The notes under the pieces are model-generated. The model did not search any database. It had not been told where the DNA came from and saw nothing but the letters and a program-made list of their open reading frames with translations. Shown in pieces: positions 1,947 to 49,127 of a stretch of 61,871 nucleotides of DNA. The first letter of the stretch is position 1; each line of letters opens with the position of its first letter. The stretch is from a virus (taxonomy: Duplodnaviria; Caudoviricetes). Both the position numbers and the translations under genes were made by a program. The DNA lies in IMG/VR virus record IMGVR_UViG_3300025131_009312, positions 1 to 61,871 of that record. One strand, 5' to 3'.

Positions 1947-1954
1947 GATTTTTC

Positions 1955-16300: not shown

Positions 16301-16969
16301 ATGCATGATGTAAGCTTATATGGGCACCTAACTTTCGACCGACTCTTTGTAAATGATAAAAAGGATGCTACCGTCGGGTCCATGGGCAATGTATGGAAAC
16401 ACCTGAACCGAATTAATCCTACTCTGGGGATTAATTTAGAGCCCACCTCTGTGGGAGAAGCCCTAATCATGATTGATACAAATAAGTGTGAGCGAGCATC
16501 GATTGCAAACTTAAATCTGCAACAACGAGCGCCCCTTGTGGAGCCATCACGCTGGAGTCATATTTTATATCTTAATGAACTCCCGGACACTTCTTTCATC
16601 TCGGAGATCACCACCGGAGTTATATCGGCCGATATTTGCCGGGGTAGGACACTAAGCGATCTAAGTATTTTAAAATATATAGATTTTCTATTCATCTCTG
16701 ATGAAGATCTATTTATGGAAGTTTCCGATCTACAACAATATGTGAAGGGGACTATAATATTACATTATAAAAGCGGCAGTCTTTGCTATACTAAGGGTGC
16801 AGATAGAGTAAAAACAACCACACCAGTAATCGAAGATGTTAACGTGTTAGGGTGTGGCGATATGTTCGCTGCAGCATTCATTAATGCATACATGATGCAT
16901 TCTAGTATAGAAAGCGCCGTCGCCTTTGCTCATGAAAGCGTTAGTCAACACTTGAGAGGTATAGAATGA
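16301..16969 (+). CDS. PfkB/ribokinase-family carbohydrate kinase (compact)
   Basis: YGHLTFD, VGSMGNV, DVNVLGCGDMFAAAF anion-hole motif. Confidence 0.75.
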   Translation: MHDVSLYGHLTFDRLFVNDKKDATVGSMGNVWKHLNRINPTLGINLEPTSVGEALIMIDTNKCERASIANLNLQQRAPLVEPSRWSHILYLNELPDTSFISEITTGVISADICRGRTLSDLSILKYIDFLFISDEDLFMEVSDLQQYVKGTIILHYKSGSLCYTKGADRVKTTTPVIEDVNVLGCGDMFAAAFINAYMMHSSIESAVAFAHESVSQHLRGIE

Positions 16970-18126
16970 AAAAATATAATTTGCTGATTCCCATGGCAGG
17001 CCGCGGCCAGAGATTTGTCGATGCCGGTTATAAGGTGCCCAAGCAGTTTATCCATGTTGGCGCCGTGCAGCTCCTGGATATTTCATTAAACTGTTTTGAT
17101 CTAGAACAGTGTAATCTGATCTTTGTAGTCCGCGACGATCAAATAAGTAACTACAATGTTGATCAAATTTTGAGGTATAAGTACGGAGACGATATCACCA
17201 TCGTAGTAACAGACGGGATGACAGAGGGTTCTACCTGCAGCTGTCTTTTGGCTCAGGACCACATTGATAACGATGCTCCTCTTTTTATTCATACGTTGGA
17301 TATTGAATTTGGCCCCCGGGTTAACCCAGCCGAACTCGTAGAAACCGATAGCGATGGTATTTTATTAACATTTAAATCTAATTCTTCCAACTATAGTTAC
17401 GTTGAACTAGGAGAGAACCAACAGGTAACCAAGACAGCCGAAAAGAAGGTGATCAGTGATAAAGCTTGTGTAGGAATTTACTACTTCAAGTCCGGCTCGG
17501 TGTTTTGCGCCAATGCCCGCGAAATGATATCGCGGAATTTAAGAACCAACAATGAGTTTTATATTACTCCGCTCTACAACCTATTGGTAGAGAAGGACCT
17601 TAAGGTGACAACCAAAGAGGTCTCCAAAATGCATATTTTCGGTACCCCCAAGGAGTTCGAGTTCTATAAGAACAATGTCGTCAAGCGATTCGGAACAAAA
17701 CCAGTTGCGCTGTGCTCAGATCATTCTGGGTTCGAGGCCAAAGAGAAGTTCAAGAAAACGCTGCAACAGCAGGGAATCGACTTTATCGACTTCGGCACCC
17801 ACGTAAAACAAGATTCTGACTATAAATATTTTATCGAACAAGCCGTAGGATCCAAAAATGATGGTACGTGCGACTTTATTTTAGGCTTTTGCCGCACGGG
17901 CCAAGGAGTTAATATGTGCGCCAACAAGTTCGAGGGCGTGAGATCAGCATTAATCTACGATGAGATGTCAGCAGAGATGGCAATTCGTCATAACTGTGCC
18001 AACTTTTTTGCTCTCCCTGGTCGCCACTGTGAGTCAGATGAATATGTGCACCGTATCGTACAGCTGCTCAAGGACCACACCTTTGATGGTGGTCGCCACC
18101 AGATGAGAATTCAGGAGTTAGAATAA
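16966..18126 (+). CDS. Sugar-phosphate nucleotidyltransferase fused to ribose-5-phosphate isomerase B (RpiB/LacAB) domain
   Basis: LIPMAGRGQRF..GY..PK, AEKKVIS, NEFY, GTP; from ~17701 ALCSDHSG, FCRTGQG...ANKFEGVRSA, RHNCAN, FDGGRH. Confidence 0.88.
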   Translation: MKKYNLLIPMAGRGQRFVDAGYKVPKQFIHVGAVQLLDISLNCFDLEQCNLIFVVRDDQISNYNVDQILRYKYGDDITIVVTDGMTEGSTCSCLLAQDHIDNDAPLFIHTLDIEFGPRVNPAELVETDSDGILLTFKSNSSNYSYVELGENQQVTKTAEKKVISDKACVGIYYFKSGSVFCANAREMISRNLRTNNEFYITPLYNLLVEKDLKVTTKEVSKMHIFGTPKEFEFYKNNVVKRFGTKPVALCSDHSGFEAKEKFKKTLQQQGIDFIDFGTHVKQDSDYKYFIEQAVGSKNDGTCDFILGFCRTGQGVNMCANKFEGVRSALIYDEMSAEMAIRHNCANFFALPGRHCESDEYVHRIVQLLKDHTFDGGRHQMRIQELE

Positions 18127-20563: not shown

Positions 20564-21368
20564 AAAGATTCAAAAATACTGGGACGATCGTCCGTGTAAT
20601 ATTCGTCATTCCGACAAAGATATTGATGCGGCTGAATATTCTGCCGAAGTAGAAAAACGCAAATACTTTGTAGAACCTCATATTCCTTCTTTTGCTGACT
20701 TTCCTAGGTGGCGAGATAAAGATGTTTTGGAAATAGGGTGTGGTATTGGAACTGATAGTATTAATTTTCACCGCGCCGGGTCAAATCTGACCATGATTGA
20801 ATTGTCTCAAAAAAGTCTGGACGTATGCTTGAGACGCTTTGCGGCTCTGGACCTAGAGGCACCGGCAAGTTATTTAGAGAATGCAGAAGATATGGATGAT
20901 TTCCTGCCGGATGATGCAAAATATGATTTAATTTATTCATTCGGCGTAATTCATCACACGGAATCACCAGAAAAGATAATTGCTGCAGCCAAAAAACGTT
21001 TAAAAAAAGATGGTGAATTACGCATAATGTTATATTCTAAATATAGTTTTAAGTTGTTTGATTTTATGCACCAGGAAAATGTTTGGGATCTGGGCCGTAC
21101 GGACGAGATTATTCAGTACTATGCTGAGGCACAACTAAATTGTCCAAGAGCACTAACTTATACTTTTGGTGAAATTAGAAAATTACTTAAAGATTTTGAT
21201 ATCATAGAAATGAAGAAGGATCACCTTTTTAAATATTCAATTCCCGAGTATATTAAAGGAGAATATGTAGTGGCAGACGCTTTTAAAAATATGGAGGATG
21301 CCGATTTTAAGGAAATGTGCGAAGAAGTGGGATGGCATACTTTGGTAAGGGCATCGTTAAAAAAATGA
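20553..21368 (+). CDS. Class I SAM-dependent methyltransferase
   Basis: VLEIGCGIGTD, YDLIYSFGVIHH, LKKDG. Confidence 0.88.
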   Translation: MLIEKIQKYWDDRPCNIRHSDKDIDAAEYSAEVEKRKYFVEPHIPSFADFPRWRDKDVLEIGCGIGTDSINFHRAGSNLTMIELSQKSLDVCLRRFAALDLEAPASYLENAEDMDDFLPDDAKYDLIYSFGVIHHTESPEKIIAAAKKRLKKDGELRIMLYSKYSFKLFDFMHQENVWDLGRTDEIIQYYAEAQLNCPRALTYTFGEIRKLLKDFDIIEMKKDHLFKYSIPEYIKGEYVVADAFKNMEDADFKEMCEEVGWHTLVRASLKK

Positions 21369-22468
21369 AAAATATTTCTGTTGTCGGCATTGGCAAGCTG
21401 GGCCTCGCATTCAGTTTAACCTTAGAAAAGGGGGGATACTCAGTGTGTGGGGTGGACATTGATAAAGAATATGTTCAGGCGCTTAATGATAAGACCTTTA
21501 TTTCCGAGGAGCCAGGTGTAACAGAATATTTGACGCAGGCTACCAATTTTGAGGCCACCACAAACCTGCAAGAAGCGGTGCTTCAATCGGATCTCTTATT
21601 TGTTATTGTTGCCACCCCGTCTCTACCCAACGGAAGGTACGATCACTCCCAGGTCGATAATTTAATAACGGCCCTTGAGGCTCTACCCCGCCATGGCCAA
21701 CACAAGCACTTTATTGTGTGCTGCACTACAATGCCCGGCTATTGTGAGGCTATCACTCCCCGCCTAAAAAACCTTAACTACACGGTGAGCTACAATCCAG
21801 AATTCATAGCGCAGGGAACAATCTTGAAAAATCAGGAGCAGCCCGATATGGTACTTATTGGTGAGGGCTCTGAGGCTGCCGGCGATATGTTGCAAGCAAT
21901 ATATGAAACCCATACTATTAATGCCCCTCGAATTTGTCGCATGACACCGACCGAAGCCGAACTAACAAAGCTCTCTCTCAATTGTTTTTTGACGACTAAG
22001 ATTGCATATGCAAACATGATTGGCGACATAGCACTCCGCAGCAGCTGCGACCCGGCTACTATATTAAATGCCATTGGCAGCGATAGCCGTATCGGAAATA
22101 AATACTTAGGATACGGCTTTGGTTATGGCGGCCCCTGTTTTCCAAGAGATAACCGGGCCCTAGCCCTTTATGCCGACGACTGTGGAGTGGAAGCATTAAT
22201 CAGCAAAGCATCAGATGAGAGCAATGCCCTTCACCTGGAATACCAGGTCGAAGAGTACATGAAAGAGAATACACCTAACGTACCCGTCCAGTTTGACTAC
22301 GTGACCTATAAACGGGCCTCTACTCTTTTGGTAGAGTCTCAACAGCTAGAATTTGCTAAAAAATTGGCAGAAAAGGGGTATAATATTATTATTAAAGAAA
22401 GAAGAACAGTTATAGACGAACTTAAGAGTCTATATGGAAACCTGTTTACTTACGTGGAGACAACATGA
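21365..22468 (+). CDS. UDP-glucose/GDP-mannose 6-dehydrogenase family
   Basis: VVGIGKLG, VATPS, YNPEF, AELTK, GYGGPCFPRD (catalytic Cys); ATGA overlap at 21365. Confidence 0.9.
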   Translation: MKNISVVGIGKLGLAFSLTLEKGGYSVCGVDIDKEYVQALNDKTFISEEPGVTEYLTQATNFEATTNLQEAVLQSDLLFVIVATPSLPNGRYDHSQVDNLITALEALPRHGQHKHFIVCCTTMPGYCEAITPRLKNLNYTVSYNPEFIAQGTILKNQEQPDMVLIGEGSEAAGDMLQAIYETHTINAPRICRMTPTEAELTKLSLNCFLTTKIAYANMIGDIALRSSCDPATILNAIGSDSRIGNKYLGYGFGYGGPCFPRDNRALALYADDCGVEALISKASDESNALHLEYQVEEYMKENTPNVPVQFDYVTYKRASTLLVESQQLEFAKKLAEKGYNIIIKERRTVIDELKSLYGNLFTYVETT

Positions 22469-23475
22469 AAAGAATATTAGTTTGTGGAGCCGGCGGATTT
22501 ATCGGTGGCGCAATGGTTAAGAGGCTAAAGGAGGAAGGACATTGGGTCCGCGGAGTGGACCTTAAGTATCATGAGTTTTTCGATGTCACGCAAGTGGCAG
22601 ATGAGTTCGTACAGGGCGATCTACGGGATCCTGCTCTATGTGACCAAGTGGTTACCGATGACCTGGACGAAATCTATCAGTTTGCTGCCGATATGGGCGG
22701 CGCCGGATTTGTTTTTACTGGGGAGAATGACGCTGATATCATGCATAATTCTGCGATGATCAATCTTAATATTGCCGAACAGTGTGTTCGCAAAGATGTG
22801 ACTCGCATTTTCTATTCATCGTCAGCCTGTATGTATCCTGAACACAATCAGATGGACCCAGACAATCCCAATTGCACCGAAGACTCTGCATACCCCGCAC
22901 AGCCCGACTCAGAGTACGGATGGGAGAAACTTTTCAGTGAGCGACTTTGGTTCGCTTTTGCTCGCAACTACGGTCTCACAGTTCGGGTTGCCCGATATCA
23001 TAATATCTTTGGTCCTGAGGGCACGTGGGACGGCGGCCGAGAAAAAGCCCCAGCAGCGTTCTGTAGAAAGGTCGCTGTGGCCTCTGAGAGCGCCGAGATT
23101 GAAGTTTGGGGCGATGGCGCACAAACTAGGTCGTTCCTCTACATAGACGAGTGTATAGAGGCTACTAGACGCCTTATGGACCATCCCACTTTCGAGGGCC
23201 CTGTAAACATCGGCTCTGAAGAAATGATCGCAATCAATAAATTTGCTGAGATGGCAATTGACATTTCCGGAAAGAGTCTTACAATTGATAACATCGATGG
23301 TCAAAGATTCAAAGACAAGTATGGATTTCCTACGCCTGTGGGTGTCCGCGGTCGTAATTCCGACAACGCTCTGATTCGTGAGATGCTGGATTGGGATTAC
23401 GAACAGCCATTGCGCCTAGGGATGGAAAAGACCTACAGCTGGATCGCAGATCAGGTAGAAAAACAGGGAGAATAG
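22465..23475 (+). CDS. GDP-mannose 3,5-epimerase-like SDR
   Basis: GAGGFIG, FAADMGGAGF, YSSSACMYP, PDSEYGWEK, GGREKAPAAFCRK, GVRGRNSDN. Confidence 0.85.
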   Translation: MKRILVCGAGGFIGGAMVKRLKEEGHWVRGVDLKYHEFFDVTQVADEFVQGDLRDPALCDQVVTDDLDEIYQFAADMGGAGFVFTGENDADIMHNSAMINLNIAEQCVRKDVTRIFYSSSACMYPEHNQMDPDNPNCTEDSAYPAQPDSEYGWEKLFSERLWFAFARNYGLTVRVARYHNIFGPEGTWDGGREKAPAAFCRKVAVASESAEIEVWGDGAQTRSFLYIDECIEATRRLMDHPTFEGPVNIGSEEMIAINKFAEMAIDISGKSLTIDNIDGQRFKDKYGFPTPVGVRGRNSDNALIREMLDWDYEQPLRLGMEKTYSWIADQVEKQGE

Positions 23476-23476
23476 A

Positions 23477-24334
23477 ATGACTAGCGCATTAGTAACTGGC
23501 GGCTGCGGCTTTGTGGGCAGCAACCTTGTGGACAAATTATTGGACCTCGGATACACAGTTACCGTGATAGACGACCTATCGTCTGGCAAAAAAGAGTATT
23601 GTCGAGAAGAGGTTACCTATTACTTTGACGATTTTAGGAAGGTGTTGACACAGGGCGCCCTAGAACCGAGCATCGATGTGATATTTCATATTGCCGCAGA
23701 AGCGCGAATTCAGCCCAGCTTTGAAGACCCTCTTTATACTTGTTTAAACAATAGTTATGGCACCGCTGTAGTGTGTGAATATGCCCGCCAGCATGACTGT
23801 AAGGTTGTTTACGCGGGGTCTAGTTCTTTTTATGGCGGCGTTTATCTTAACCCTTATGCATTTGCTAAGTGGCAAGGGGAAGAGGTTTGCAAGATGTACT
23901 CTGAAGTTTACGGAGTGAAGACAGGCGTCGCGCGATTCTTCAATGTTTATGGGCCTCGTAATCCTTTGATAGGACAATATACGCCTGTAGTTGCTATTTT
24001 TGAGGAACAAAGTAAGCACCCCGGGCCTCTAACTATTGTAGGAGATGGGGAACAACGCCGAGACTTTACCCATGTTTATGACATCTGCGGAGGCCTCATA
24101 GCCATTTCTCAGGGCACCTGGAGCGGTGATATCTTTAACCTAGGGACAGGAACCAATCATTCGATTAATGAATTAGCGGATATGTTCGGAGGAGAAAAGA
24201 AATATATTGCGCAACGGCCCGGTGAAGCCCGCATTACACTCGCGGATATATCAAAGACTACAGAGTTGACAGGGTGGGAGCCGTGTCATAATTTACACGA
24301 TTATGTGGAAGGAATAAAAAATGAAGTTAACTAA
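23477..24334 (+). CDS. NAD-dependent nucleotide-sugar epimerase/dehydratase (SDR)
   Basis: TGGCGFVG, YAFAK (YxxxK), RFFNVYGP, GDGEQRRDF. Confidence 0.9.
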   Translation: MTSALVTGGCGFVGSNLVDKLLDLGYTVTVIDDLSSGKKEYCREEVTYYFDDFRKVLTQGALEPSIDVIFHIAAEARIQPSFEDPLYTCLNNSYGTAVVCEYARQHDCKVVYAGSSSFYGGVYLNPYAFAKWQGEEVCKMYSEVYGVKTGVARFFNVYGPRNPLIGQYTPVVAIFEEQSKHPGPLTIVGDGEQRRDFTHVYDICGGLIAISQGTWSGDIFNLGTGTNHSINELADMFGGEKKYIAQRPGEARITLADISKTTELTGWEPCHNLHDYVEGIKNEVN

Positions 24335-34358: not shown

Positions 34359-34760
34359 ATGTCATCAGGATTAGCGCCAAGATTGCCCCTGGAAGTGGAC
34401 GACACATTTGGGGCATACAATCTAATAACGGATTTTGAAACGCTAGCAAACCAGAATCTCAAAATGCTTTTGTTTACATCTCCTGGGGAGAAAGTAATGG
34501 ATGTAGAGTTTGGAGTTGGTGTGCGTCAATTTTTGTTTGAACCTAATCGGACCGATACGTATTCTCGGCTCGATAGCAAGATAAGGGAGCAGGTCAACAT
34601 GTATTTGCCTTTTATTGGAATCGAGCGTATTGATTTTATTGTACCAGAAGGAAATCCTGATCTGTTTCCCCACACGATTAACTTAAAGCTATACTACCAG
34701 ATAAAACCATTGAGTTCTTTTGGTATGCTGGAAGTTGATGTTGCGGGAGCGGGCGTCTAA
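34359..34760 (+). CDS. Baseplate wedge protein, T4 gp25/GpW-like
   Basis: NLKMLLFTSPGEKVMDVEFGVGVRQFLFE...YLPFI signature. Confidence 0.9.
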   Translation: MSSGLAPRLPLEVDDTFGAYNLITDFETLANQNLKMLLFTSPGEKVMDVEFGVGVRQFLFEPNRTDTYSRLDSKIREQVNMYLPFIGIERIDFIVPEGNPDLFPHTINLKLYYQIKPLSSFGMLEVDVAGAGV

Positions 34761-34781: not shown

Positions 34782-36575
34782 ATGCAGAAAAAAATAATAC
34801 CCATTAACTATACTAGCCGCGACTTCGAGTCCATCCGCCAAGAGCTGGAGAATTTCGCTCGTCGCTATTATCCCAACACTTATCAAGACTTTAATGAAGC
34901 CTCTTTCGGTTCCCTGATGTTAGATACCGTGGCGTATGTGGGAGACATCTTATCGTTTTACTTAGACTATCAGACTAACGAAAGCTTCCTAGATAGCGCT
35001 GTCGAGTATTCCAACGTTTTGCGACTAGCCCGGCAGCTGGGATATAAGCAAACAACTAGTCCTGCATCTTACGGCCTTTTAACTTTTTATATTGAGGTAC
35101 CTGCCGCAACCACGGGTCTCGGTCCCGACCCTGCTTTAACACCAATTTTAGAGGCCGGCTCCACCTTCAACTCGGTGGGTGGCGGTACCTATACCCTACT
35201 TGGCGATGTCGATTTTAATAATTCCGCTGTAGAAACGGTAGTGGGTCAAGTGAACCCACTTAACGGTCAGCCAACCACTTATGTTCTTAGACTGAAAGGA
35301 CGGGCCGTCTCGGGCCGCGGCAACGTTGCAACCATTCCCATGGGAGACTTTCAGAGATTTCAGGTGGTTAAGATACCAGCGCCAAATATCAGTGACGTTA
35401 TAAGAGTGTTGGATACGGACGGTAATGAGTACTATGAAGTAGACAATTTATCTCAGAACATAGTTTACAAAGCCATCCGGAATACTGGAGAAAACAGAAG
35501 AACAGTTCCAAATATTTTGAAGGCCGTTCCAGTGGCTCGTCGCTTCGCTCTCGAAACTATTAATGGAGAAACATATTTACAGTTTGGATATGGTTCTGCT
35601 AACAATAGGCTCACCAACCCGGTTGTCGACCCAACTGAGGTCATATTAGATCTTAATGGCCGAACCTACAGTACAGAGATTGACTTTGACCCGACCAGGC
35701 TCATAAGCACTGACAAATTTGGAATTGCGCCGGCGAATACTACCCTTACGGTAGAATATCGCTACAATACCACCACTGACGTAAATGCCGGCGTGGACAC
35801 TATAACCCAGATCGCCGACGCGCGCCTAAGGTTTAAATCACAGGGTTCCCTATCAACAGCCTCTCGTGCCACAGTTAGAAATTCACTAGAAGTCTCCAAT
35901 GAGCAGTCGTTTGTGGGGGACGTATCGCTACCTTCAACTGAAGAGGTGCGGCAGCGCACCTATAGTCATTTTGCCACTCAGAATCGAGCGGTAACTGGAC
36001 GCGACTATCAGGCTCTGTGCTACAGTATGCCACCCAAATATGGCATGATTAAGCGCGCAGCTGTTCTTAAGGATACTGACGAGTTCAAAAGGAATGTGAA
36101 TATTTTGGTCATCTCCGAGTCTTCGACCGGCAAATTAATCAAATCTAACGCAACTCTTAAGAATAATTTAAAAAATTGGTTACTTCACTATAAAATGATT
36201 AGTGATACAATTGATATTCTTGATCCTTTGATTGTGAACTATGCTGTGGAGTATGAAGTTATGACGGACCTGGGAGCAAATAGATTTGAGGTGATTAATC
36301 GCTGCACAGATGCACTGGCCTCCCAATTATCATTTGTGCAGGACATCGGCGAGAGACTTTCTCTTACCGAGATGTATAGAGTCCTCCAGAAAGTGGAGGG
36401 CGTGGTGGATGTGAGTTCGCTAGAAGTCAAACTCCGCTCGGGTAATCTCTATTCCGAGTCTAACTATAACTTTGAGGGCGCCCTTTCTGCCGATGGTAAG
36501 AACGTTTTAGCAGCTTCGAATGTTATATTTGAATTGAAATATCCAAACCTTGATTTAATTGGGTCAGTTCGATAA
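34782..36575 (+). CDS. Baseplate wedge protein, T4 gp6/baseplate J-like
   Basis: YTSRDFESIR, YVGDILSFYLD, ESFLDSA, LARQLGY, LQFGYG, TQNRAVTGRDY, VEGVVDV. Confidence 0.9.
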   Translation: MQKKIIPINYTSRDFESIRQELENFARRYYPNTYQDFNEASFGSLMLDTVAYVGDILSFYLDYQTNESFLDSAVEYSNVLRLARQLGYKQTTSPASYGLLTFYIEVPAATTGLGPDPALTPILEAGSTFNSVGGGTYTLLGDVDFNNSAVETVVGQVNPLNGQPTTYVLRLKGRAVSGRGNVATIPMGDFQRFQVVKIPAPNISDVIRVLDTDGNEYYEVDNLSQNIVYKAIRNTGENRRTVPNILKAVPVARRFALETINGETYLQFGYGSANNRLTNPVVDPTEVILDLNGRTYSTEIDFDPTRLISTDKFGIAPANTTLTVEYRYNTTTDVNAGVDTITQIADARLRFKSQGSLSTASRATVRNSLEVSNEQSFVGDVSLPSTEEVRQRTYSHFATQNRAVTGRDYQALCYSMPPKYGMIKRAAVLKDTDEFKRNVNILVISESSTGKLIKSNATLKNNLKNWLLHYKMISDTIDILDPLIVNYAVEYEVMTDLGANRFEVINRCTDALASQLSFVQDIGERLSLTEMYRVLQKVEGVVDVSSLEVKLRSGNLYSESNYNFEGALSADGKNVLAASNVIFELKYPNLDLIGSVR

Positions 36576-38120: not shown

Positions 38121-41100
38121 ATGAGCTTTAAAACGTTATTCGATAAAGCTACGGCGGTCACCGCCTTAGCAAATAAGAATTCTAAACAGATCGGCGGAGA
38201 AGTTGAATCTCGTCAGTATCATACACAGGATATTATTCACGAAAAGCGGTTTATTCCTCGGATTGATTACTCTGATCCTAAGAATTTTGCTAGGTATGGT
38301 TCCGCAGAAGAGTATTATGCTCAATCGATTGGGAGAATCCTAGACAATTATCCTTATGACGGCTCACTTAAGGAAAGAATACAGTGGGAGAATGAGTCCA
38401 CATATGTAGACCTGCACATTCTCGATAATCTGTATCCCCGTACCAACGGCTTTATTCACCTATCTCAGGGCGGCTGGGGAACCGCGGCTTCGATTTCGAG
38501 TGACGGCTATGGCCTTCCCAATACTCTAGAATATATCTATCTAGAGGGCGGCCCTCACGGAAACCCAACCGGCCCGACTCCCTATGCTCAACAGTTTACT
38601 GGATCTAACTATTATGATCCTGATACCAACCGCGAGAGCAATTTAAAGTTCGACCTCCAAAATCAAGGCGCCACTATAGAGTTTTGGTTAAAGAAGGATG
38701 CCTGGGCTTCTTCTCTTACCACTAACGAAGTCTTGTTTGATATGGAGGCCAGCAATACTGGCACTGAGCAGAATCGCTTCCGGGTGGCTCTTAATTCGAC
38801 CAGCTCATCGCCGTTCTACATCACTGCGTTATCAGGCGGAGTTGGAATTACTGACGAAGCATTGGGTTCCTCTGTAACCATAGCAGATGGTTTATGGCAT
38901 CACTATGCGGTCACCTTAAAATCAGTCGCTGCTGGTATTCAAACAAAACTGTATATTGACGGGGGCCTGAACGTATCCTCGGTGCTCGGGTCTACTGGAA
39001 TTAACGAAGTGACAGGAGCGCTAGTGGCTACCGTTGGTTCCCTCGTTGCAGCAACGGCTGCCGGCGGAGCACAGTACGCAGGAAAACTCTCGGGATCTTT
39101 AGATGAATTGCGTTACTGGAAGACGCGTCGAACCGGTGAAAAGATCGGCCGCTATTGGTTTGACCAGGTGGGCGGCGGCACCAACACCGATCCGCAGGCC
39201 TTTACCGACACACAAGAAGAGGTAAACACAACCCTTGGTGTTTACTACAAATTTAACGAAGGCATCACCGGCGATACAAGTATCGATAGCACTGTGCTCG
39301 ACTACTCTGGCCGGGTTTCTAATGGAACCTGGACGGGGTATACAACCGAGTCCCGAGCCACCGGATCAGCCATTGTTATTTCCAAAGCAGCCATAAAAGA
39401 ATTCAAAGACCCCATCATTTACGGACAACACCCTGATGTCATAATGCTCCAGAGTAGTTTGCAGGTCACCGGCTCGAATCATGATACTGAAAATGCAGCC
39501 ATGGTTTACAAGAGTATTCCCGGCTGGATCACAGAAGATGACGAGGAAACCACCGGAAACCTCAAGAAACTTACTCAGATTATGGGCAGCTACTTTGACA
39601 CTCTCCAATTGCAGACTGAATCACTCAATCTGTTAAAAGATGTGGAGTATGTTTCTGGGAGTAATAAGCCTATACCGTTTGCAGATCGGCTTCTTAATTC
39701 TCACGGCCTAGTTGCACCCGAAATCTTTTTGGATGCAGATATTTTGGAGAAGTTGGCAGATCGCAGTGAAGACAAGCTCTACGAAAAGACTCTTAATGAT
39801 TTAAAGAACATTATTTATCAAAATATCTACAATAACCTGACCTATATTTATAAGTCTAAGGGAACTGAAAAGTCTTTTAGAAACCTTATTCGTTGTTTCG
39901 GCATTGATGATGAGTTGATAAAACTAAAATTATATGCGAAAAATACCCAGTATGAATTTAGGGAAAACCGGCGAACCCTCATACTCCCGACCAAGTATGT
40001 TAATTTTAATGCGACCAATGCTACCGAAGCCACTGTATTCGGCTTTAAAGATCCGTCGGGCAGCTACGAGAACACCACAGGCTATTTGACTTCTAGTGTT
40101 GAACTGACCGGAGGCTTTGCATACACGTTCGAAACAGATGTGTTTTTTCCTGAGAAAAAGGACATAACCAACCCTACATACGCGGATACCAATACGCTTT
40201 CTGCTTCGTTGTTTGGTATTCATGGCACTATAGGATCTGAGACCGATACTGCGTGGCCCGAAGTTGCGGGCTCTGTGGTTGACGACAAAGTTAATTTCCA
40301 GGTGTATGCGTGCCGTGATGAGTTAGACTCTAAAAATGTTAAGTTTGTATTAACCGGCACCCAAGGTGGTGTAGTTCCTCTTATGGAAAGCTCCTTATAT
40401 GAGGACACCTATTCAGATGTAACATGGAACTTATCAGTTCGGGTTAAACCAGAGCGATATCCATTGGCTGCCTTTTCGACAGGGGCTGACACTGGCGCTT
40501 ATACGATCGAATTGCACGGAATTAAAGTTCAAGCCGGAGAAATAACGGATAGTTTTAATATTTCTGATACCATTAGCGCAGCATCCAACCCCGACGGTGG
40601 ATTCATGACAGGCAGTAAGCGCCCCTATGTGGGAGCGCATCGTACCAACTTCACTGGTACTATACTCCAGCCTACCGATGTTAGAATTGAAGCCTCGCGA
40701 TTCTGGGTGAATTATGTTGAAGACGAAGCACTCCGCGCGCACGCCTTAGATTCCGAGAACCATGGTGCGTTTCAGCCACACCAATATGCATACCCATTTG
40801 CTAGTGATGGTCATTATGGAGACGTTGTTGAGTTTGATACCCTGGCCTTTAATTGGGAGTTCAGCCAAAATACGGGCTCGAACGCTTTAGGTCAGATGGT
40901 GGTGGCAGATGAATCTTCGGGTTCCAATGTTACAACGGCGTATCAGGGCCTAGGAGAACTACTCAACAAACAGTATACCGCCCTAGGGTATGGATTCCCT
41001 CAGTCTTCGACCGAGCCAATTGTTAAGGACTTTGTCGTTATCTCACGCCTAAATGACGTTGAGACCATCGGCCCCGCCGAAACTATTAATGTCTTAAGCG

Positions 41101-44100
41101 CCCAAGATCAGCACGTTTTCAAGATCGACTCGCGCCCTATTAATTATTATTTCTCTTTTGAAAAAAGTATGTATAACACCATCAGTGAAGAAATGGTCAA
41201 TTATTTTGGAACATTAAAAGATTTTAATACTCTTGTTGGTGCCCCAGTCAATCGCTATCGTCCTGATTATAAACAACTGGCCTTTTTAAAGCAAAAGTTT
41301 TTTGAGAACGTTGCCAATGATGAGATAGACTTTGATAAGTTTTATGAGTTATACAAATGGTTTGACTCTACCCTGTCATTCCTGTTAGGCCAGCTCGTCC
41401 CGGCCTCCGCCGATTTTGCGGATAATATTCGAACCATGGTGGAAAGCCACGCTTTGGAGAGAAACAAGTATAATAATATTTTGCCCTTTGTCGACAAGGA
41501 AAACACGGTTTTTGAAGCAACTATGTCGAGCAGTGTAGACTACGGTGATGCTATTTCATCCCCGGACGATGAGCCCCAAGGAACCGGGTTTTATCCTGCG
41601 CATGCCCCTACCAAGCGCGCAACTGGGTTGTCGAACCGCGGTATGGTTAAAAAGTGGAAATATGTACACGCCCCGGTTTCCGACGACCCGACTGAAAAAT
41701 ATCTCTGGTGGAAGAACAAGGCAGAGCGTAACACACCAACCATTGATGTCCCAGCCGGTGTACTTACCAGTAGGGCCCAAATTTTGCGATCTATTAGGAT
41801 GGCAGACCAACGCGAAGAAGGAAAGCCTTACCGATTTAACGTTGCCGGTTCATACGACCTACAGGGTGTGGGTACAGGTTATAACTTTAAGCCCTATATG
41901 CTATATCCGTCGATTGCTCCATTTGGTGGAAACGCAGCAGGCACAAATGCCCCAAGAGATATAGCCTTTATTAGTGGAAGTACAGTGGAGACGCTCCTGA
42001 ATACCACGGACGAGTTTTACCCAACATACAAGCAGCGCCTAGGCTTCGCTGTTGATCTAGACAAGAATAAAAATGATAGCATCGCGGACCCCGAACCTGG
42101 AGGTCACATCGCTCCGTTTAGTCTTTATAACGCTACACTGACCAACACTCCATCATCTTTCCGACCCAATACCGCCATTACTAATTTGCATCACGATTAC
42201 GTCGCTGACAATTCTATTCCAGCCCAAGGGCCGTTTACGGAGAAATATGTCGGAGGTCGCCGATTCAGGCACGTAGAACTTAATACCGGAACAGATACTG
42301 CTTTAACTCGACCAGAAGGTTTCAAGTTACAGTTCTCTGAGGTCTCTTCCTCGGCCGGAGGCAAGTTTTCTGGTTCACTGGCAATCTTGCCCCCTAATTC
42401 TACGGGCTTGATCACCCGTGCCGAAATCCCCACAGCGCAACGATTAAGAGATGAGACCGCAAAGCGCCCTGTAAACATCAAGAACATCTTTATGACGACG
42501 GCTTCTGCCGGAGAGCGCCTGAGCAATATTGCCACACATGGTAAAATAGGAAATTACCAGAAGAACTATCAAGTTATTCAAACATCGGGCCGCTCACAGA
42601 ACGATCCATACTTTGTCGAGCAGTCTTTTAACTTTGCCCTCAACCCCCAGAATCCTTACCCAAGAAGTACATTTAATAATCGTTTCCCTCTGCAGAACCC
42701 TTTGAGCGCCACCCAAGCCTCGGGCGAAACTCTTCGGGTTGCAAATACGAAGGCCATTGTACTCTGGGACGGCCCTAACATACACTATCAGTTTACAGCC
42801 CCAGCCGGCCTGAATTCAAATGAGGCTGAAACTATCGCTTTCTGGGTGAAGGCAGACTCCTCCGACCTAGGCGGCTACATCATTTACAATGCTGATGGTG
42901 GTACTCGAAGACTTGTCACCATCGAGGCCACGGGCCAAGTTGCTTTCTTGGTCGGCCTCGCCAGTGGCAACCACACTTGGATCACTAACGACTCAGCTAC
43001 AGCCGGCGACGAATGGATACATATAGCAATTTCTTATGATGCATCCTCGGATGCGACAACGCCGAACATCTATGTTAATGGTACCGCTGTGGCTATATAC
43101 GAATCCGGCACACCCGGTTCAGGCGATCCTGATGACTGGAGTAGCACTGTTTTAGTTGGTAACACTACCAGCGTAAACTTTCAGGGTTATATTTCGGACA
43201 TGGCTTTTTGGAATACTGCGCTAGACGCCCCAACGATTGCAAGCCTCTATGCGCGCTCAACTGCTAATTTGATTAACGCTTCATGGGTTGCATCCCCCCT
43301 CATGTGGTACCGCTGCGGTAATGGTGCTACGGACACCGCCGCCACCATTGTGGATCAAATGGGCACCGCCAATTTGACGTCAACCTCGGGTCTCAAGGAA
43401 ATTGTTGATATACCTCCCGGAAGTTGTCTTGGAACGTCCCTAGATAATTTTGCACTCCCTAATCGCGACGGCATAAATTCAAATCAGACGGTTTTTGTAA
43501 ACCACTTTAGCGCGCCCGGGGGTTACAAGACCCTTTCCCGTGGTTATCTCGACCCAGCCCACGAAGAACTTTCAGTCTATAATGCGCTTCCTTATCGAAA
43601 CCGAGGCGTGATTGATTACGGCTTATCTGGCTCCGCGTCGGCTGATCCCTCTATTGCTCAAGCAGAGCATGTTGTCGGTCAGCTTCTTCGCACGCGCGGC
43701 CTTAACCAGCGCGCTTCACTTCATTGCGGACAGTATGGCATCGATGCGGCTTATGGATCCATAACTGCGCAGAGCACTCGTGTCGACGGTGGCACGGGAT
43801 ATTCGTCTACTCCTTCGTGGCACAAGACCAATCGGAACACATTACGGCGAATGGAGTCCGGCTCCACAGGGTATGCTGCAGCTTCCACCTATGACAACTT
43901 GTATGTACAGCACCAGATCCCTCAGTCGGCACAGCAATATGCGTGGATCACCGCGTCTCTCGCACCCGGAGAATCCATCATGGTCCTCCAGCCGCCTACG
44001 TGTATCTCTGCTTCTTCCTTAACCCAACTCCTGACCGCGAGCGCTGTAGGTTATAGTCGGTACTGGTCATATAATTCTGCTCTGATGTATGGGGCCACAG

Positions 44101-47100
44101 GCCGCGGCGGATTTAATGCAAGTTCACAAGGACTTCAGTTCCTCCCAGTAGATTTTCTCGGCCTGTCAACTATTGTTGTCGACCCTGTGAGTGCCTCTAC
44201 TCATACGCTTGGGTACTCTCTAGATCTTCCGCTCTACACTAAACTAACTACTTACTACGCCAAGTCAGACTATATTAATCCTTCTACCATGCCGCCCCAG
44301 GCTTTCGCGGCGGGCGGCAATATAATTACCAACCTCGCCAATGGTGCCCCAGGCCATGCAAGTATTTTAAACTCTATTCTGCTTAACCGTAACGGACCAT
44401 ACGGATATCCTACGTGGAAGCAGATTCGTACTGGCGAAACGCGTACTGCGCGTGCGCTCCGTCGCCAAAATAAAATAGGCACAGTTAAAGTTCCCCCCCT
44501 CGTAAAAAATGTAGTAGCGTCCACCGGCGTAGAACTAGGGTTTGTGAGAGCCAAACAACCTGTTGGTTTTGTTGACTTTGTGGAACAGCCTTTAAGTAGT
44601 CGTTATTCGCCTATCTTCGTGGCCACAGAGGATAACACAGCGAACTCAAACGTTAGAAATAACATTCAACTTAATGTTGCTTATGGAAATCGATTTGACA
44701 ATTTCTCTAACGAGGGACTCAACAATCTGCTGAATATCCCGCCACCGGACATCTACAACAACCCGTTTACCAATATCGCTGACTCCATTGTGCGTAGCCA
44801 GTTGAGTACTATGATGATTTATTCCGAAAGAATTTATCCGGCTGAAATAAATGCATACAAAAATATAGTTCGCAACAGAACCACATTTACCATCTCAAAT
44901 GTTTGGAACGCCGATAGAGGAGTCCGCAGCGCCACGCAGACTCGATCCAACTCCCAAGGAGATATAGTTGACTACCAGAGTATATGGGCTTTAGACCCGC
45001 AATTAAATTTCTCAACAGTGGCCCCTGCTTTAAGCAATATAACGGACGGATCCGGTGAACTGCAAAATATGTATAATCGTTTCGGGGTTCAGTCTACGGG
45101 CTATACTGATGGCTCGATAACAGCCAGCGCTATATATGCATCCCGGGTCCCTGTGGGCTATAGCGAAGGTGCTACATCAAGCGCGAATCTGGTTTATGGA
45201 GGTGCTGCATCTTTTGTCACTCCGATGGACGCCGACAAGATGCCATATGAGCGCTATGAGGATTGGGTCCAGCATCTGCGCCTGATCGGCAAGGATTATT
45301 CTATAGTTCCGGAATTCCGCCTGAGTGAGTTGATGGAGACTTATCTCGAAACTTATGATGGCAATTTCTTGGCTGAAGTTACGGGCGCCTTAACATTAAC
45401 GGGATCCTCGGCCGAAATTTCCAATAACCAAGAGCAGTTTTACAAGACTTATACTAATGCAGATTTCATGAAGTATTTTGAGGTGGTGGATAATATGCTG
45501 GACAACCAGCGCTCTGGCGACTTAAAAATACAGAGAGAGAAGTTGGCCCTGAGATGCACAGCCTTGTTGAAGTTTTTGCCTTATAAGGGCTTCTATCCTT
45601 CAGAACGTATTATGGAGTTGGCTAGCCTTTTCTCCAGCTCGTATGGCGATAATTTTGAAACCATCGCCGCGGCAGCCGATGGGTCTACAACCACCAATCC
45701 TACAACCTATAGAGCTATTGTGGAGCCACTTTTTGCACCAGGAATCTGGTTTAACAGTGTAAAATCTGGAGTGGGTGTGGGAAGTTGGGTCACTGTCAAT
45801 ACCGCGCCAGACAGCGTGTCATCTCAAGATGACATTAGCAGATCCGGCCAGCAGAAGGATGCTGGTATTACTGTTTTACCGGAGGGGTCTGTATGCTATG
45901 GTCAAGGCAGTCTGTTCTCAGCATCACTTTCTCGTAACGCCAATACCTATCATTTAGAGCGCGTCCCCTTTGAGGCCTCATATCGACCTGAGGAATTCCT
46001 CAGTCAAAAGTCTGTGACGGGTTCCTATATTTGGGATAGTGGGATGGGGACTGCCAGCCTCGCCTTTAATAATGGAAATAAATATACCAAGAATAGGGTA
46101 AAATGGAACGGCGCCGGCAAGGATCTCTATCGTTTAGCGGCCGATAACTTTTTATGTGAAACGACAAACTTTTTCATGGATGACATGGTAAGTTTTATCT
46201 CCAGCCCAGAAAACCAGTTTTCCGAAAAAACTCAAGAAGGGGAGGTTTTCGCCCTAACTCTTAATTTCAATCGGCCGATGACTCGACAGCTTGGAATTAC
46301 TGCCGGCGGCGACCCCGATCGAACCCGTTTTGAGTTGTATAATCGAGCCTCGGCCTTCGGGTCGCCATTTATTTTGGATGAGGGTTATCCGATGACCACC
46401 ACAGGTGAGACAGCCTCTGGCTCAATTGAACTTACCAGTAGCCTTGTTTCATCGGGCATCCAGGCCCAGGGTTATATTGAGTTAACCGGTGCGATGGTTG
46501 GCGGAGTAGCTGCTTCGGGTAATATTAAGGTGGATTCCTGGGCCGACAATATTACTGGCCAGGGCATCCGCTTATATAACGCCGAGGGCACTGAATACTA
46601 TACTTACACCTTTAGTTCAACCAGTCCCACTAGTGCGGATACAATAAATACCACCAACTCAAATTCCGACCAGCTCAAGGAAATCCAATTGGCCGTTGAA
46701 CTATCCGCTTGGGATGGGACAACCCGGATCAACACAGTTGACATTACCGTGCTCGAATTGACTCAGAGCGCCACGGGCACAGCCGGCAACACCGCTATTG
46801 GCGAAGATGGGGGCGGTTTAAGCTCAACTGACTTCATCAATGGCGCCAACGCCACAGGGTGGTCCATTACCACCGGCGACAGGTGGACAATTAGCGATGG
46901 TGGCACCAACTCCTACAACTACCTACAGCCCGGTACCGTCCGTACAGCAACGTTCGCAGCCACTAGCTCGGGAGACCCATGCGCTTATGATGGATGTTTC
47001 GAAATTGTTAACACGGGGGATGCAAACGCTGACATTTTGGCCACCATACAGAGTTTCTACGACACAGTTAATACATACCAAGCCGCCAACCCAGACTATA

Positions 47101-49127
47101 AAGTAACGTCTTCAACCATCAGTACCGCGGAGGGCGCGACCGACGTCGGCGTTGTATATTTTAGGAACTGTCATACTGGCGCCTATGGTAACGTGGGAAT
47201 AATTGCCACTACCAGTTCCAACGGAGACTACTACCAAAGGGTGGCTGGAATGGGCTCGGCGACTGGCGTCGGCCCCGGCGCACAACAGAGGGCGCCCTCT
47301 GTTGCTGGTGTGGACCCAGTTTACACGCTAGCGGACCAGGATCGATTTGTTATTAGTGACGGCGCCTGCGATGGCGCCCTGCAGTGGATCCCATTCTATT
47401 TAACCGGTGCGGTGAGCGGATCCACAGCCTGGAATTCAGCAGTGGCATCTACTCCATTTGCAGAGTTGACTGCTTCTGATGCCCAGTCGACCGCCACTAA
47501 CCTTGTAAATGCCATCAATGCCATGGCAAACTACGGCACCTTCCCAATGACAGCCCAATTAGCAGCAGGTGGGAGCCCATCGGCCGCCAACGCTCGAATT
47601 GATATTGTAAACGATGATGACGGCGCGTGCGGCAACCAAGCCATTACTAGTGTTCTATCCTCCGAAGCCTCTGGTTATATAAACATCCTCGGCCTCGCCG
47701 GCGGGAATGATAGCTTTGACACTACTGAATACACTGCATCTTTGGCTCCCAATCTACCTTCTTACTTCTATGGTACTAGCTCGGTCACCATTATTACTAG
47801 CGCTTCATACGGCGGCCGGCAAACAATTGGAGAGTTGTTTGGTAATGCCGAGTATATCTATGACCGGTCCTATGAAACAGGAGACTTTGATACTGCAGCA
47901 GTTGGATACTGGTTTGCTCAACAGGTCTCTGAGAGTGTAAACTTAAATGAGGTTTTCGCTGAAGGCCGCTCTTTCCGGTGGGCAATCCAAAGCAAATTCG
48001 AAACACCAGTGCTAAATTTTGCAGATATATCGCCCCCTCGTCCTGCCGCGGCCCTCTATCCTGTAAAGGCAGGGTGCGACGCAGACATCACCAGCAAAGG
48101 TATGTGGCATCAGTATGGAACAGATTTCTCTAAGGGTGATGGCATTTATTTGAATATTACTACCCCCAAACTAGTAGATTCTACCCGATATGGTACGGTA
48201 CATAATCCCTCATCATTAGCCCAGATGGTTGGTTTTGAAGAGGGAGTAAATAAAGAAATTGGCCAAGTGAGGTCTAATCAAGCACTGGAAGAGGCTGTGG
48301 TGGCAGTGCCCTTTGTGGTAAAAGCAAACCGTAGACAGTTTATAAGCTTTCCCCGTAAACGTCCGGCATCTTATGCTAGGCTTGAGGCAGCCATGGACAA
48401 ATATATTTTCCCACCGAAGTTTGATTTCCTCCAGTTTGATTCCGTCAAACCGATAATCATGTATGTTTTCGAATTTAGCATGGATTTGAAAAAGAAGGAT
48501 CTCACCGACATGTGGCAAAACCTGGCCCCTGGTGGAACAACGCCGAAAATGGCAGTAGATGAGGTAATAATTGAAGACAAGAAATTGATCAACAAAATGT
48601 TGACGGATAATGAGAATCTCCAATGGATGGTATTTAAAGTGAAGAGACGCGCCACGAAGGACTTTGAAATTCAGCGTAGGTTACAATTGGTCGATTCCAC
48701 TAACCAAATTACTCCCTCTATCGGGCATTATACATACAATTGGCCTTATGACTATTTCTCCTTAGTCGAGTTGGTAAAGATGGACGAATCAGTACAGTAC
48801 GCATCAACGGATATTATTGTTGCAGATGGTGAACCTATCGCGACCGCTGAGGCGGCGTCAGGACGCACGAGGCTCCCAACCTCTATCTCGGCTCGTGAAC
48901 TCACCGCCGGCGCCACTGGTACCCCCATAGCGGGCGTCACAGAGGGCTCCTTCGATGTCGCGACCCCAATCGTTCCCGTAAATCTAGTCGACCCCGATAC
49001 TGTGGGCGCCCAAAAGAGCGATACAAAGACTCAAAGATCTACAAAGAGCACCGTGAAAAAGTCTTCCGCGAAGACAGTCAAAAAGCAAAAGAGAAGTTAT
49101 AGCACCAAAAGTAGGTCTAAGAAGTAA
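38121..49127 (+). CDS. Giant baseplate/tail protein (3668 aa), gp7/P2 gpI-like core with two LamG (concanavalin-like) domains
   Basis: IYKSKGTEKSFRNLIRCFG (~39846); LamG1 TIEFW...WHHYAVT...LYIDG...DELRYW (~38640-39340); LamG2 TIAFW...WIHIAIS...IYVNG...SDMAFWN (~42750-43400). Confidence 0.8.
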   Translation: MSFKTLFDKATAVTALANKNSKQIGGEVESRQYHTQDIIHEKRFIPRIDYSDPKNFARYGSAEEYYAQSIGRILDNYPYDGSLKERIQWENESTYVDLHILDNLYPRTNGFIHLSQGGWGTAASISSDGYGLPNTLEYIYLEGGPHGNPTGPTPYAQQFTGSNYYDPDTNRESNLKFDLQNQGATIEFWLKKDAWASSLTTNEVLFDMEASNTGTEQNRFRVALNSTSSSPFYITALSGGVGITDEALGSSVTIADGLWHHYAVTLKSVAAGIQTKLYIDGGLNVSSVLGSTGINEVTGALVATVGSLVAATAAGGAQYAGKLSGSLDELRYWKTRRTGEKIGRYWFDQVGGGTNTDPQAFTDTQEEVNTTLGVYYKFNEGITGDTSIDSTVLDYSGRVSNGTWTGYTTESRATGSAIVISKAAIKEFKDPIIYGQHPDVIMLQSSLQVTGSNHDTENAAMVYKSIPGWITEDDEETTGNLKKLTQIMGSYFDTLQLQTESLNLLKDVEYVSGSNKPIPFADRLLNSHGLVAPEIFLDADILEKLADRSEDKLYEKTLNDLKNIIYQNIYNNLTYIYKSKGTEKSFRNLIRCFGIDDELIKLKLYAKNTQYEFRENRRTLILPTKYVNFNATNATEATVFGFKDPSGSYENTTGYLTSSVELTGGFAYTFETDVFFPEKKDITNPTYADTNTLSASLFGIHGTIGSETDTAWPEVAGSVVDDKVNFQVYACRDELDSKNVKFVLTGTQGGVVPLMESSLYEDTYSDVTWNLSVRVKPERYPLAAFSTGADTGAYTIELHGIKVQAGEITDSFNISDTISAASNPDGGFMTGSKRPYVGAHRTNFTGTILQPTDVRIEASRFWVNYVEDEALRAHALDSENHGAFQPHQYAYPFASDGHYGDVVEFDTLAFNWEFSQNTGSNALGQMVVADESSGSNVTTAYQGLGELLNKQYTALGYGFPQSSTEPIVKDFVVISRLNDVETIGPAETINVLSAQDQHVFKIDSRPINYYFSFEKSMYNTISEEMVNYFGTLKDFNTLVGAPVNRYRPDYKQLAFLKQKFFENVANDEIDFDKFYELYKWFDSTLSFLLGQLVPASADFADNIRTMVESHALERNKYNNILPFVDKENTVFEATMSSSVDYGDAISSPDDEPQGTGFYPAHAPTKRATGLSNRGMVKKWKYVHAPVSDDPTEKYLWWKNKAERNTPTIDVPAGVLTSRAQILRSIRMADQREEGKPYRFNVAGSYDLQGVGTGYNFKPYMLYPSIAPFGGNAAGTNAPRDIAFISGSTVETLLNTTDEFYPTYKQRLGFAVDLDKNKNDSIADPEPGGHIAPFSLYNATLTNTPSSFRPNTAITNLHHDYVADNSIPAQGPFTEKYVGGRRFRHVELNTGTDTALTRPEGFKLQFSEVSSSAGGKFSGSLAILPPNSTGLITRAEIPTAQRLRDETAKRPVNIKNIFMTTASAGERLSNIATHGKIGNYQKNYQVIQTSGRSQNDPYFVEQSFNFALNPQNPYPRSTFNNRFPLQNPLSATQASGETLRVANTKAIVLWDGPNIHYQFTAPAGLNSNEAETIAFWVKADSSDLGGYIIYNADGGTRRLVTIEATGQVAFLVGLASGNHTWITNDSATAGDEWIHIAISYDASSDATTPNIYVNGTAVAIYESGTPGSGDPDDWSSTVLVGNTTSVNFQGYISDMAFWNTALDAPTIASLYARSTANLINASWVASPLMWYRCGNGATDTAATIVDQMGTANLTSTSGLKEIVDIPPGSCLGTSLDNFALPNRDGINSNQTVFVNHFSAPGGYKTLSRGYLDPAHEELSVYNALPYRNRGVIDYGLSGSASADPSIAQAEHVVGQLLRTRGLNQRASLHCGQYGIDAAYGSITAQSTRVDGGTGYSSTPSWHKTNRNTLRRMESGSTGYAAASTYDNLYVQHQIPQSAQQYAWITASLAPGESIMVLQPPTCISASSLTQLLTASAVGYSRYWSYNSALMYGATGRGGFNASSQGLQFLPVDFLGLSTIVVDPVSASTHTLGYSLDLPLYTKLTTYYAKSDYINPSTMPPQAFAAGGNIITNLANGAPGHASILNSILLNRNGPYGYPTWKQIRTGETRTARALRRQNKIGTVKVPPLVKNVVASTGVELGFVRAKQPVGFVDFVEQPLSSRYSPIFVATEDNTANSNVRNNIQLNVAYGNRFDNFSNEGLNNLLNIPPPDIYNNPFTNIADSIVRSQLSTMMIYSERIYPAEINAYKNIVRNRTTFTISNVWNADRGVRSATQTRSNSQGDIVDYQSIWALDPQLNFSTVAPALSNITDGSGELQNMYNRFGVQSTGYTDGSITASAIYASRVPVGYSEGATSSANLVYGGAASFVTPMDADKMPYERYEDWVQHLRLIGKDYSIVPEFRLSELMETYLETYDGNFLAEVTGALTLTGSSAEISNNQEQFYKTYTNADFMKYFEVVDNMLDNQRSGDLKIQREKLALRCTALLKFLPYKGFYPSERIMELASLFSSSYGDNFETIAAAADGSTTTNPTTYRAIVEPLFAPGIWFNSVKSGVGVGSWVTVNTAPDSVSSQDDISRSGQQKDAGITVLPEGSVCYGQGSLFSASLSRNANTYHLERVPFEASYRPEEFLSQKSVTGSYIWDSGMGTASLAFNNGNKYTKNRVKWNGAGKDLYRLAADNFLCETTNFFMDDMVSFISSPENQFSEKTQEGEVFALTLNFNRPMTRQLGITAGGDPDRTRFELYNRASAFGSPFILDEGYPMTTTGETASGSIELTSSLVSSGIQAQGYIELTGAMVGGVAASGNIKVDSWADNITGQGIRLYNAEGTEYYTYTFSSTSPTSADTINTTNSNSDQLKEIQLAVELSAWDGTTRINTVDITVLELTQSATGTAGNTAIGEDGGGLSSTDFINGANATGWSITTGDRWTISDGGTNSYNYLQPGTVRTATFAATSSGDPCAYDGCFEIVNTGDANADILATIQSFYDTVNTYQAANPDYKVTSSTISTAEGATDVGVVYFRNCHTGAYGNVGIIATTSSNGDYYQRVAGMGSATGVGPGAQQRAPSVAGVDPVYTLADQDRFVISDGACDGALQWIPFYLTGAVSGSTAWNSAVASTPFAELTASDAQSTATNLVNAINAMANYGTFPMTAQLAAGGSPSAANARIDIVNDDDGACGNQAITSVLSSEASGYINILGLAGGNDSFDTTEYTASLAPNLPSYFYGTSSVTIITSASYGGRQTIGELFGNAEYIYDRSYETGDFDTAAVGYWFAQQVSESVNLNEVFAEGRSFRWAIQSKFETPVLNFADISPPRPAAALYPVKAGCDADITSKGMWHQYGTDFSKGDGIYLNITTPKLVDSTRYGTVHNPSSLAQMVGFEEGVNKEIGQVRSNQALEEAVVAVPFVVKANRRQFISFPRKRPASYARLEAAMDKYIFPPKFDFLQFDSVKPIIMYVFEFSMDLKKKDLTDMWQNLAPGGTTPKMAVDEVIIEDKKLINKMLTDNENLQWMVFKVKRRATKDFEIQRRLQLVDSTNQITPSIGHYTYNWPYDYFSLVELVKMDESVQYASTDIIVADGEPIATAEAASGRTRLPTSISARELTAGATGTPIAGVTEGSFDVATPIVPVNLVDPDTVGAQKSDTKTQRSTKSTVKKSSAKTVKKQKRSYSTKSRSKK
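46413..47711 (+). repeat. Three nested protein-level repeats inside the giant protein
   Basis: Three consecutive start strands ASGSIELT / AQGYIELT / ASGNIKVD, then three bodies each with GxxGN (TGTAGNTAI, TGAYGNVGI, DGACGNQAI); two share DRxxISDG. Confidence 0.65.

Follow-up and report, generated by a model that had tools for sequence, protein, structure and literature searches.

How would a polypeptide chain fold when it lays out three similar beta-strand segments back to back, and then three similar globular bodies? The question is raised by a stretch of viral DNA (Duplodnaviria; Caudoviricetes; IMG/VR record IMGVR_UViG_3300025131_009312, positions 1 to 61,871), which we analyzed at its full length of 61,871 nucleotides and call the window. 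A giant open reading frame (ORF) in this window, P0002, encodes a protein of 3668 amino acids. Residues 2765 to 3197 (nucleotides 46413 to 47711) make up a module of three strand units of 16 to 17 amino acids (S1 to S3), directly followed by three bodies (B1 to B3). We conclude, with a probability of roughly 75%, that the module consists of three homologous insertion domains nested one within another, in which S1 and S2 are the detached first strands of the B3 and B2 domains, respectively. In support of this reading, strand units and bodies match in number across relatives, the bodies are homologous, the innermost domain is modeled as one contiguous fold, and the outer strands are modeled into the sheets of the outer bodies.

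The motifs from which nesting was originally predicted, using the sequence alone, all lie in frame in the ORF at the positions given for them. For the strand units, these are listed in Table 1; for the bodies, they are FINGAN (ending at nucleotide 46850), GDRWTISDG (starting at residue 2919), QDRFVISDG (starting at residue 3073), and GLAGGND (ending at nucleotide 47711). The end of every body has the same order of elements: strand, G..GN motif, one or two further strands, and G-x-x-G-G turn. A relaxed S-unit pattern matched the protein five times, comprising S1 to S3 at 16- to 17-residue spacing and two matches elsewhere, and the run of S units was kept in relatives down to ∼32 to 39% identity. 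All S units come before the first body, whereas plain tandem repeats would alternate start and body. The main rival reading is an ordinary tandem array, in which B1, B2, and B3 are each complete and GWSITT and DPVYTLA serve as local first strands. S1 and S2 would then be an extra N-terminal strap, or a ribbon continuing the sheet of B1 or lying alongside the array, and the equal counts would reflect length matching instead of split domains. Several features of the sequence speak for this arrangement. The segments GWSITT and DPVYTLA between the bodies and EYTASL after B3 are possible local strands, each body is followed by a comparable segment of the form Y-[ST]-x-S/L, and S2 lies just 6 residues from S3, close enough for a hairpin. 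Since the link segments can be read as local strands and MAFFT aligns S3 with those of B2 and B3, the sequence alone leaves the topology undecided.

Relatives of P0002 provided comparative evidence. Full-length relatives were few: five by a word-indexed search and nine at E ≤ 0.001 when the segment was searched with phmmer against 1.84 billion representatives. The C-terminal core was common, with 527 matches among shorter proteins, and most core relatives lacked the module. We took the distance between conserved flanks, located by BLASTP, as the insert size. At the position of the P0002 module (site 1), this distance was −6 to 28 residues in 68 of 76 proteins and 274 to 670 residues in the other 8. 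At a second loop ∼90 residues downstream (site 2, after the ...QSKFETPIINIAG motif), 3 of 110 proteins had 175 to 452 residues and the others 12 to 44; the carriers of a module at site 2 were P0007, P0011, P0119, L001, L011, L012, and L016. A third site lies far upstream, at residues 693 to 807 of P0026; the site corresponds to approximately residues 2340 to 2380 of the window protein. Because the same cassette occurs in three different loops of the core, the two ends of the module must lie together. In P0019, which has no insert, the segment EFTASLAP is nevertheless present (EYTASLAP in P0002); the segment after the last body therefore belongs to the core, a point against a tandem array.

Levels were counted over all collected proteins and locus translations with a body hidden Markov model (HMM) built from 30 bodies and a chained S pattern (15- to 18-residue spacing). 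The number of S units equaled the number of bodies in 29 of 29 complete modules: 2 modules had one of each (P0026 and P0119), 4 had two, 18 had three, and 5 had five. These 29 modules include near-duplicates and represent ∼14 sequences below 90% identity. The one-level forms, P0119 (site 2), P0026 (third site), and, by eye, the N-truncated P0022 (site 1), carry just the S-plus-body unit equivalent to the contiguous inner domain of P0002. In P0119, the script chose the wrong motif, but its count of one agrees with the reading by eye. Left out of the count were P0009, P0012, P0013, P0015, and P0018, which are N-truncated without the S side, and P0022, whose S-like strand fell outside the pattern. 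In L006, the reading frame is interrupted within the module and no body was matched: the open frame ends ∼60 residues after S1, although tblastn matched the whole query. Either a frameshift, a stop, or a fault in assembly lies behind this break. A body-like stretch (helix, G..GN-type motif, and GG turn) was also seen by eye in the N-terminal region of P0124, at residues ∼280 to 390; it was not reported by the body HMM, and P0124 lacks a module at both site 1 and site 2. A search with the body profile of a 5.8-billion-protein set ("longer" lengths) returned P0008 only, which is weak evidence given that candidates were crowded out, and a viral-contig scan with the outer-body alignment found no contig beyond those already in the set. 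The original prediction had called for homologs with differing numbers of nested copies, and forms with 0, 1, 2, 3, and 5 levels were indeed found, at three loops.

These counts also bear on the idea that the S units are shaft repeats of a trimeric beta-spiral or beta-helix fiber and the bodies are separate globular knobs. The period of 16 to 17 residues, the alternating hydrophobics, and a Gly close to the end of every unit are reminiscent of such repeats. However, the n − 1 extra units (one to four) are too few for a shaft, and unit number tracks body number exactly. The module also lies inside a loop of a large core and not at a chain end, and in the models described below S3 forms part of a globular domain as one of its own strands and the S chain was placed on the bodies as a monomer. 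We regard a fiber shaft as very improbable.

To compare the bodies with one another, we built profiles from nine loci and aligned them with hhalign. The B2-type and outer-type (B3) profiles matched over their whole length (E = 2.2e-27, 123 columns), and at the profile level B2 and B3 are clearly paralogues. B1 matched B2 (E = 5.6e-7, 78 columns) and the outer bodies (E = 1.3e-7, 75 columns) in the helix-to-end half alone. Homology of inner and outer domains thus extends over the full length for B2 and the outer bodies and over the 75 to 78 C-terminal columns only for B1. These values, together with the counts above and the models below, refute the notion that the repeats are chance similarity of Gly/Ser/Thr-rich low-complexity sequence with no real feature behind it. 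The composition is rich in Gly, Ser, Thr, and Ala, and single-sequence BLASTP between bodies was weak (8e-4, 4e-4, and 0.017), but the pattern is conserved in relatives and B1 was predicted with confidence to adopt a fold with strong structural matches; we give chance essentially no weight. Searches of the 30 bodies against Pfam gave scattered single matches, none credible. Against the PDB, the body profile gave a weak match to 8fop_T, the sheath of Milano (E = 0.46; domain, 0.35), which spanned 69 positions of the profile and included the helix and the G..GN motif, and the outer-body profile matched nothing relevant.

The fold of the innermost domain was clearest in an AlphaFold2 (AF2) model of the inner two levels (S2-S3-B1-B2 plus link, 293 amino acids), built from an alignment of 22 rows that included paralogous bodies. 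Mean predicted local distance difference test (pLDDT) score was 71 and predicted template modeling (pTM) score was 0.52, with S3 and B1 at pLDDT 85 to 91. Residues 13 to 132 of this model (S3+B1) were matched to known domains by VIA-align. The best match was the sheath of cyanophage A-1(L) (8kee_A, residues 92 to 184; Z = 10.7, root mean square deviation of 1.8 Å over 88 residues), followed by the sheaths of Milano (Z = 9.3), PhiTE (9cba; Z = 9.2), and Mu (9khy; Z = 9.1), by T4 gp11 (Z = 8.5 for 1el6_A and 8.2 for 5iv5_AF, over 92 to 95 residues), and by FliD D3 and flagellin outer domains (Z of about 7 to 8). As modeled, S3+B1 is one contiguous fold that matches whole known domains; it is a complete domain of the type seen in tail-sheath protrusions, FliD D3, and flagellin outer domains. 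The ESM Atlas gave neither a named look-alike nor a stored model. The same model disfavors a tandem array, in that GWSITT was not predicted as a strand and B2 had three local strands, one fewer than the four of B1 before the helix (S3 counted). S2 was itself predicted as a strand (E3-9, pLDDT 56 to 61).

If S1 and S2 complete the outer domains, they should find places in the sheets of B3 and B2. We modeled B2+B3 (chain 1, 301 amino acids) with S1+S2 as a separate partner chain (39 amino acids) in ESMFold2, each with its own alignment. The interaction prediction score from aligned errors (ipSAE) was 0.68, 0.69, and 0.68 in three runs; the highest-scoring of three controls had 0.00. Of 157 solved complexes, 116 reached the mark passed here, as did 2 of 215 mismatched pairs, a calibration that is only roughly valid for the custom alignments used. 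Partner pLDDT was 76 to 77, and at least 90% of contacts were common to the runs. S1 (partner residues 10 to 14) ran antiparallel to chain-1 residues 247 to 252, the B3 strand ANARID just before the G..GN motif, and S2 (partner residues 25 to 30) ran antiparallel to chain-1 residues 101 to 106, the equivalent B2 strand GVVYFR. Both units were also in contact with the helices of the bodies and with the first local strand, and their C-terminal ends contacted the return links (chain-1 residues 150 to 161 for S1 and 4 to 7 for S2). In the model, the pairing of S1 with B3 and of S2 with B2 is the nested order, which speaks against a tandem array. In models, an outer domain is thus assembled from two segments lying on either side of the inner one, at an ipSAE of 0.68, alongside the equal counts of S units and bodies. 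Taken together with the contiguity of S3 and B1, these results bear out, at the level of models and counts, the core of the original inference of nesting from the start-start-start-body-body-body order.

Several observations weigh against this reading. The AF2 model of the whole three-level piece (488 amino acids, 10-row alignment) had a mean pLDDT of 41, with the S strands at 21 to 31 and unstructured, and its Foldseek matches had E ≥ 0.2 only. The three stacked domains that AlphaFold had been expected to show did not appear; S3+B1 folded confidently in the two-level model. Foldseek alone on the two-level model found nothing at E ≤ 0.001 (best match FliD, 2.8e-3). In that model, S2 could form a hairpin with S3. 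The complex-model score is the model's own confidence, and the runs differ by seed only. S2 had no rival partner there because S3+B1 was left out, and since the fold class is known, the passing score may partly reflect memory of such domains. Sequence comparison links B1 to B2 and B3 in the C-terminal half only and so does not establish that their N-terminal strands are equivalent. MAFFT, as noted, placed S3 opposite the links. The equality of S units and bodies reflects a handful of independent changes of n, and no n = 4 form was present among the scored modules. On balance, we consider a tandem array unlikely and prefer the nest.

Conservation dropped inward. The identities of B1, B2, and B3 were 27.9, 39.5, and 44.5% versus P0005, 48.2, 51.1, and 59.9% versus P0004, and 93.0, 97.3, and 97.8% versus P0003, and the S units were 60.6% identical to those of both distant relatives (P0005 and P0004). 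This gradient fits an exposed, distal inner domain. The five-level locus L014 (region compared, 3506 to 4204) points to a less orderly history: B3 and B4 were 83% identical in DNA versus 49% for S2 and S3, so bodies were homogenized or exchanged without a matching change in the S units, a further point in favor of a tandem array and against the nest. In L013 (3509 to 4201), B3 and B4 shared 66% DNA identity, and B3 resembled the B3 of three-level relatives. These patterns suggest gene conversion or the exchange of single bodies. Coupled recent duplication of an S unit with its body was dropped as an explanation on the L014 values, which likewise leave the proposed evolutionary route, recursive self-insertion, not shown. 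Covariation of S-unit types with body types was also dropped as proof of pairing order; the outermost S unit of the five-level form was as similar to S1 of the two-level form as to its expected partner, and the differences followed linker context.

Under the nested reading, the module would occupy a loop at the surface of a giant structural protein associated with the baseplate of an uncultured phage with a contractile tail, and each of its domains would share the fold of sheath protrusions, FliD D3, and flagellin outer domains. The chain would leave the core and lay down S1, completing the outer domain (B3), then S2, completing the middle domain (B2). It would then build the whole inner domain, S3+B1, and return through the remainder of B2 and the remainder of B3 to the core, so that both chain ends would meet at the same loop. 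The domains may stack into an outward projection, with the innermost and most variable one as its exposed distal tip. Such a projection could serve surface contact (adhesion or host recognition) or decoration, the number of levels setting its reach. An adjustable-length stalk on the baseplate had been proposed for this module; adjustable length fits the series of 0, 1, 2, 3, and 5 levels, but the models do not show a linear stalk or a projection from the baseplate (two-level pTM, 0.52). A broader proposal is possible but doubtful: that these forms are a natural recursion series of a domain within its own copies, each new level requiring two nonadjacent additions, namely a strand of 17 residues N-terminally and a body of ∼115 to 150 residues C-terminally. 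Mismatched intermediates would be selected away, reach would be graded, the hypervariable innermost domain would be a distal host-contact tip, and the cassette would move between loops as a unit.

The genes around P0002 are consistent with this setting (Table 1). With gp25-like and gp6-like genes just upstream of P0002, this region of the window appears to be the baseplate block of a contractile-tail phage. P0002 itself has two Laminin_G_3 stretches (best, residues 1557 to 1707), the sole Pfam family matched. Neither P0002 nor the module segment matched a PHROGs family, phmmer of P0002 against PDB sequences returned nothing relevant, and residues 2561 to 3400 had no cultured-phage match by tblastn among 50,697 phage records. 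With no PHROG, PDB, or cultured-phage match, gene order is the sole support for a T4 gp7-like wedge identity. Three more large ORFs surround the giant gene (28980 to 34313, 50139 to 53072, and 53072 to 56233; 1777, 977, and 1053 amino acids) and matched no Pfam or PHROG family at E ≤ 0.001. Positions 26244 to 27974 encode a 576-amino-acid protein with a VanY-type D-Ala-D-Ala carboxypeptidase domain (PF02557, 7.5e-07), possibly a cell-wall enzyme associated with the tail. An extended series of genes for sugar-nucleotide enzymes and glycosyltransferases (GT) (1164 to 24334) adjoins the baseplate block.

Table 1. Module segments, host gene, and neighboring genes in the window
Feature	Position	Strand	Remark
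Core N-flank of insertion loop (site 1), AFGSPFILDEG...TTTGET	46353..46412	+	Zero-level P0019 joins N-flank almost directly to C-flank
S1, outermost strand unit (ASGSIELT from residue 2765, plus linker)	46413..46463	+	Modeled first strand of B3 domain
S2, middle strand unit (AQGYIELT from residue 2782, plus linker)	46464..46511	+	Modeled first strand of B2 domain
Innermost domain, S3 (ASGNIKV; ASGNIKVD from residue 2798) and B1	46512..46847	+	Contiguous, complete, most variable part; AF2 and VIA-align
B2, middle body: return link NATGWSITTG, DRWTISDGG..., end ...YYQRVAGMGS and Gly/Pro-rich loop	46848..47309	+	
B3, outer body: return link VDPVYTLADQ, DRFVISDG..., end ...YINILGLAGGNDS	47310..47714	+	
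Core C-flank of insertion loop (...TEYTASLAPNLPSYFYG)	47715..47774	+	EYTASLAP-like strand also in module-free relatives
Giant ORF P0002, hosts module	38121..49127	+	Just downstream of gp25-like and gp6-like baseplate genes
gp25-like baseplate wedge gene	34359..34760	+	phrog_261 8.9e-12; PF04965 4.1e-11
gp6-like baseplate wedge gene	34782..36575	+	phrog_219 2.2e-22; N-terminal part alone matches
PD-(D/E)XK nuclease	1164..1946		Glycosyltransferase run
GT1/GT4	1937..3205		Glycosyltransferase run
GT2	3209..5209		Glycosyltransferase run
GT10 fucosyltransferase-like gene	8234..9112		Glycosyltransferase run
Epimerases/dehydratases	10569..11432, 22465..23475, 23477..24334		Glycosyltransferase run
NTP-transferase fused to RpiB	16966..18126		Glycosyltransferase run
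UDP-glucose dehydrogenase-like gene	21317..22468		Glycosyltransferase run

Nested insertion is already known from flagellins, FliD, and tail sheaths. In flagellin (D0 to D3) and FliD (D1 to D3), as in the nest proposed here, each outer domain is inserted within the next inner one, and FliD D3 (5h5w, 5xlj) and the flagellin outer domains have a fold similar to that of S3+B1. No sequence-level relation of either protein to the P0002 module was found, and the nested domains of flagellin and FliD are not known to be all paralogues of one another. T4 gp18 has nested domains as well. In sheaths, the protruding domain (8kee_A, 8foy/8fop, 9khy, 9cba), which gave the closest structural matches to S3+B1, is an insertion directed away from the tube. 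A review likewise locates extra sheath domains away from the tube and describes a core of N- and C-terminal parts (PMC9230969). Unlike these proteins, P0002 is not a sheath, by its single Pfam family and the PHROGs result, and its domain is multiplied and nested. T4 gp11, also a baseplate protein, has an insertion whose fold is similar, its middle domain; that domain is present in a single copy, and no sequence similarity between gp11 and P0002 was found.

What P0002 and its relatives add is a graded natural series in a phage baseplate protein, reaching three levels in P0002 itself and five among the relatives. A description of a deeper self-nest or copy-number series was not found in the literature searched. 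The series offers a test bed for the folding of discontinuous domains, for example by strand complementation, for how two separate gene segments stay number-matched in evolution, and for how phages tune the reach of baseplate projections. On the modeled structures, it would also assign a fold to part of a very large, unannotated structural protein family seen only in metagenomes.

The closest parallel is the flagellin of Geovibrio thiophilus, a published case of a domain inserted into its own duplicate. There, D5 is described as a duplicate of D4 inserted in one D4 loop, and D4 as related to FliD D2 (PMC11532411). In both systems, the copy of a FliD-like domain lies inside a loop of the original, so that homologous domains are nested, and the flagellin domains project from the surface of a helical or tail-like machine, as those of P0002 may do. 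Chain 9au6_A of this flagellin matched the S3+B1 model at Z = 5.3. The host of the P0002 module is a phage baseplate protein and not a flagellin, and the N-terminal parts of its outer domains are reduced to a single strand unit of 16 to 17 residues. One level of self-nesting is described for the flagellin, in contrast to three in P0002 and one, two, or five in its relatives, which, if the models hold, illustrate the growth of a protein projection by nesting.

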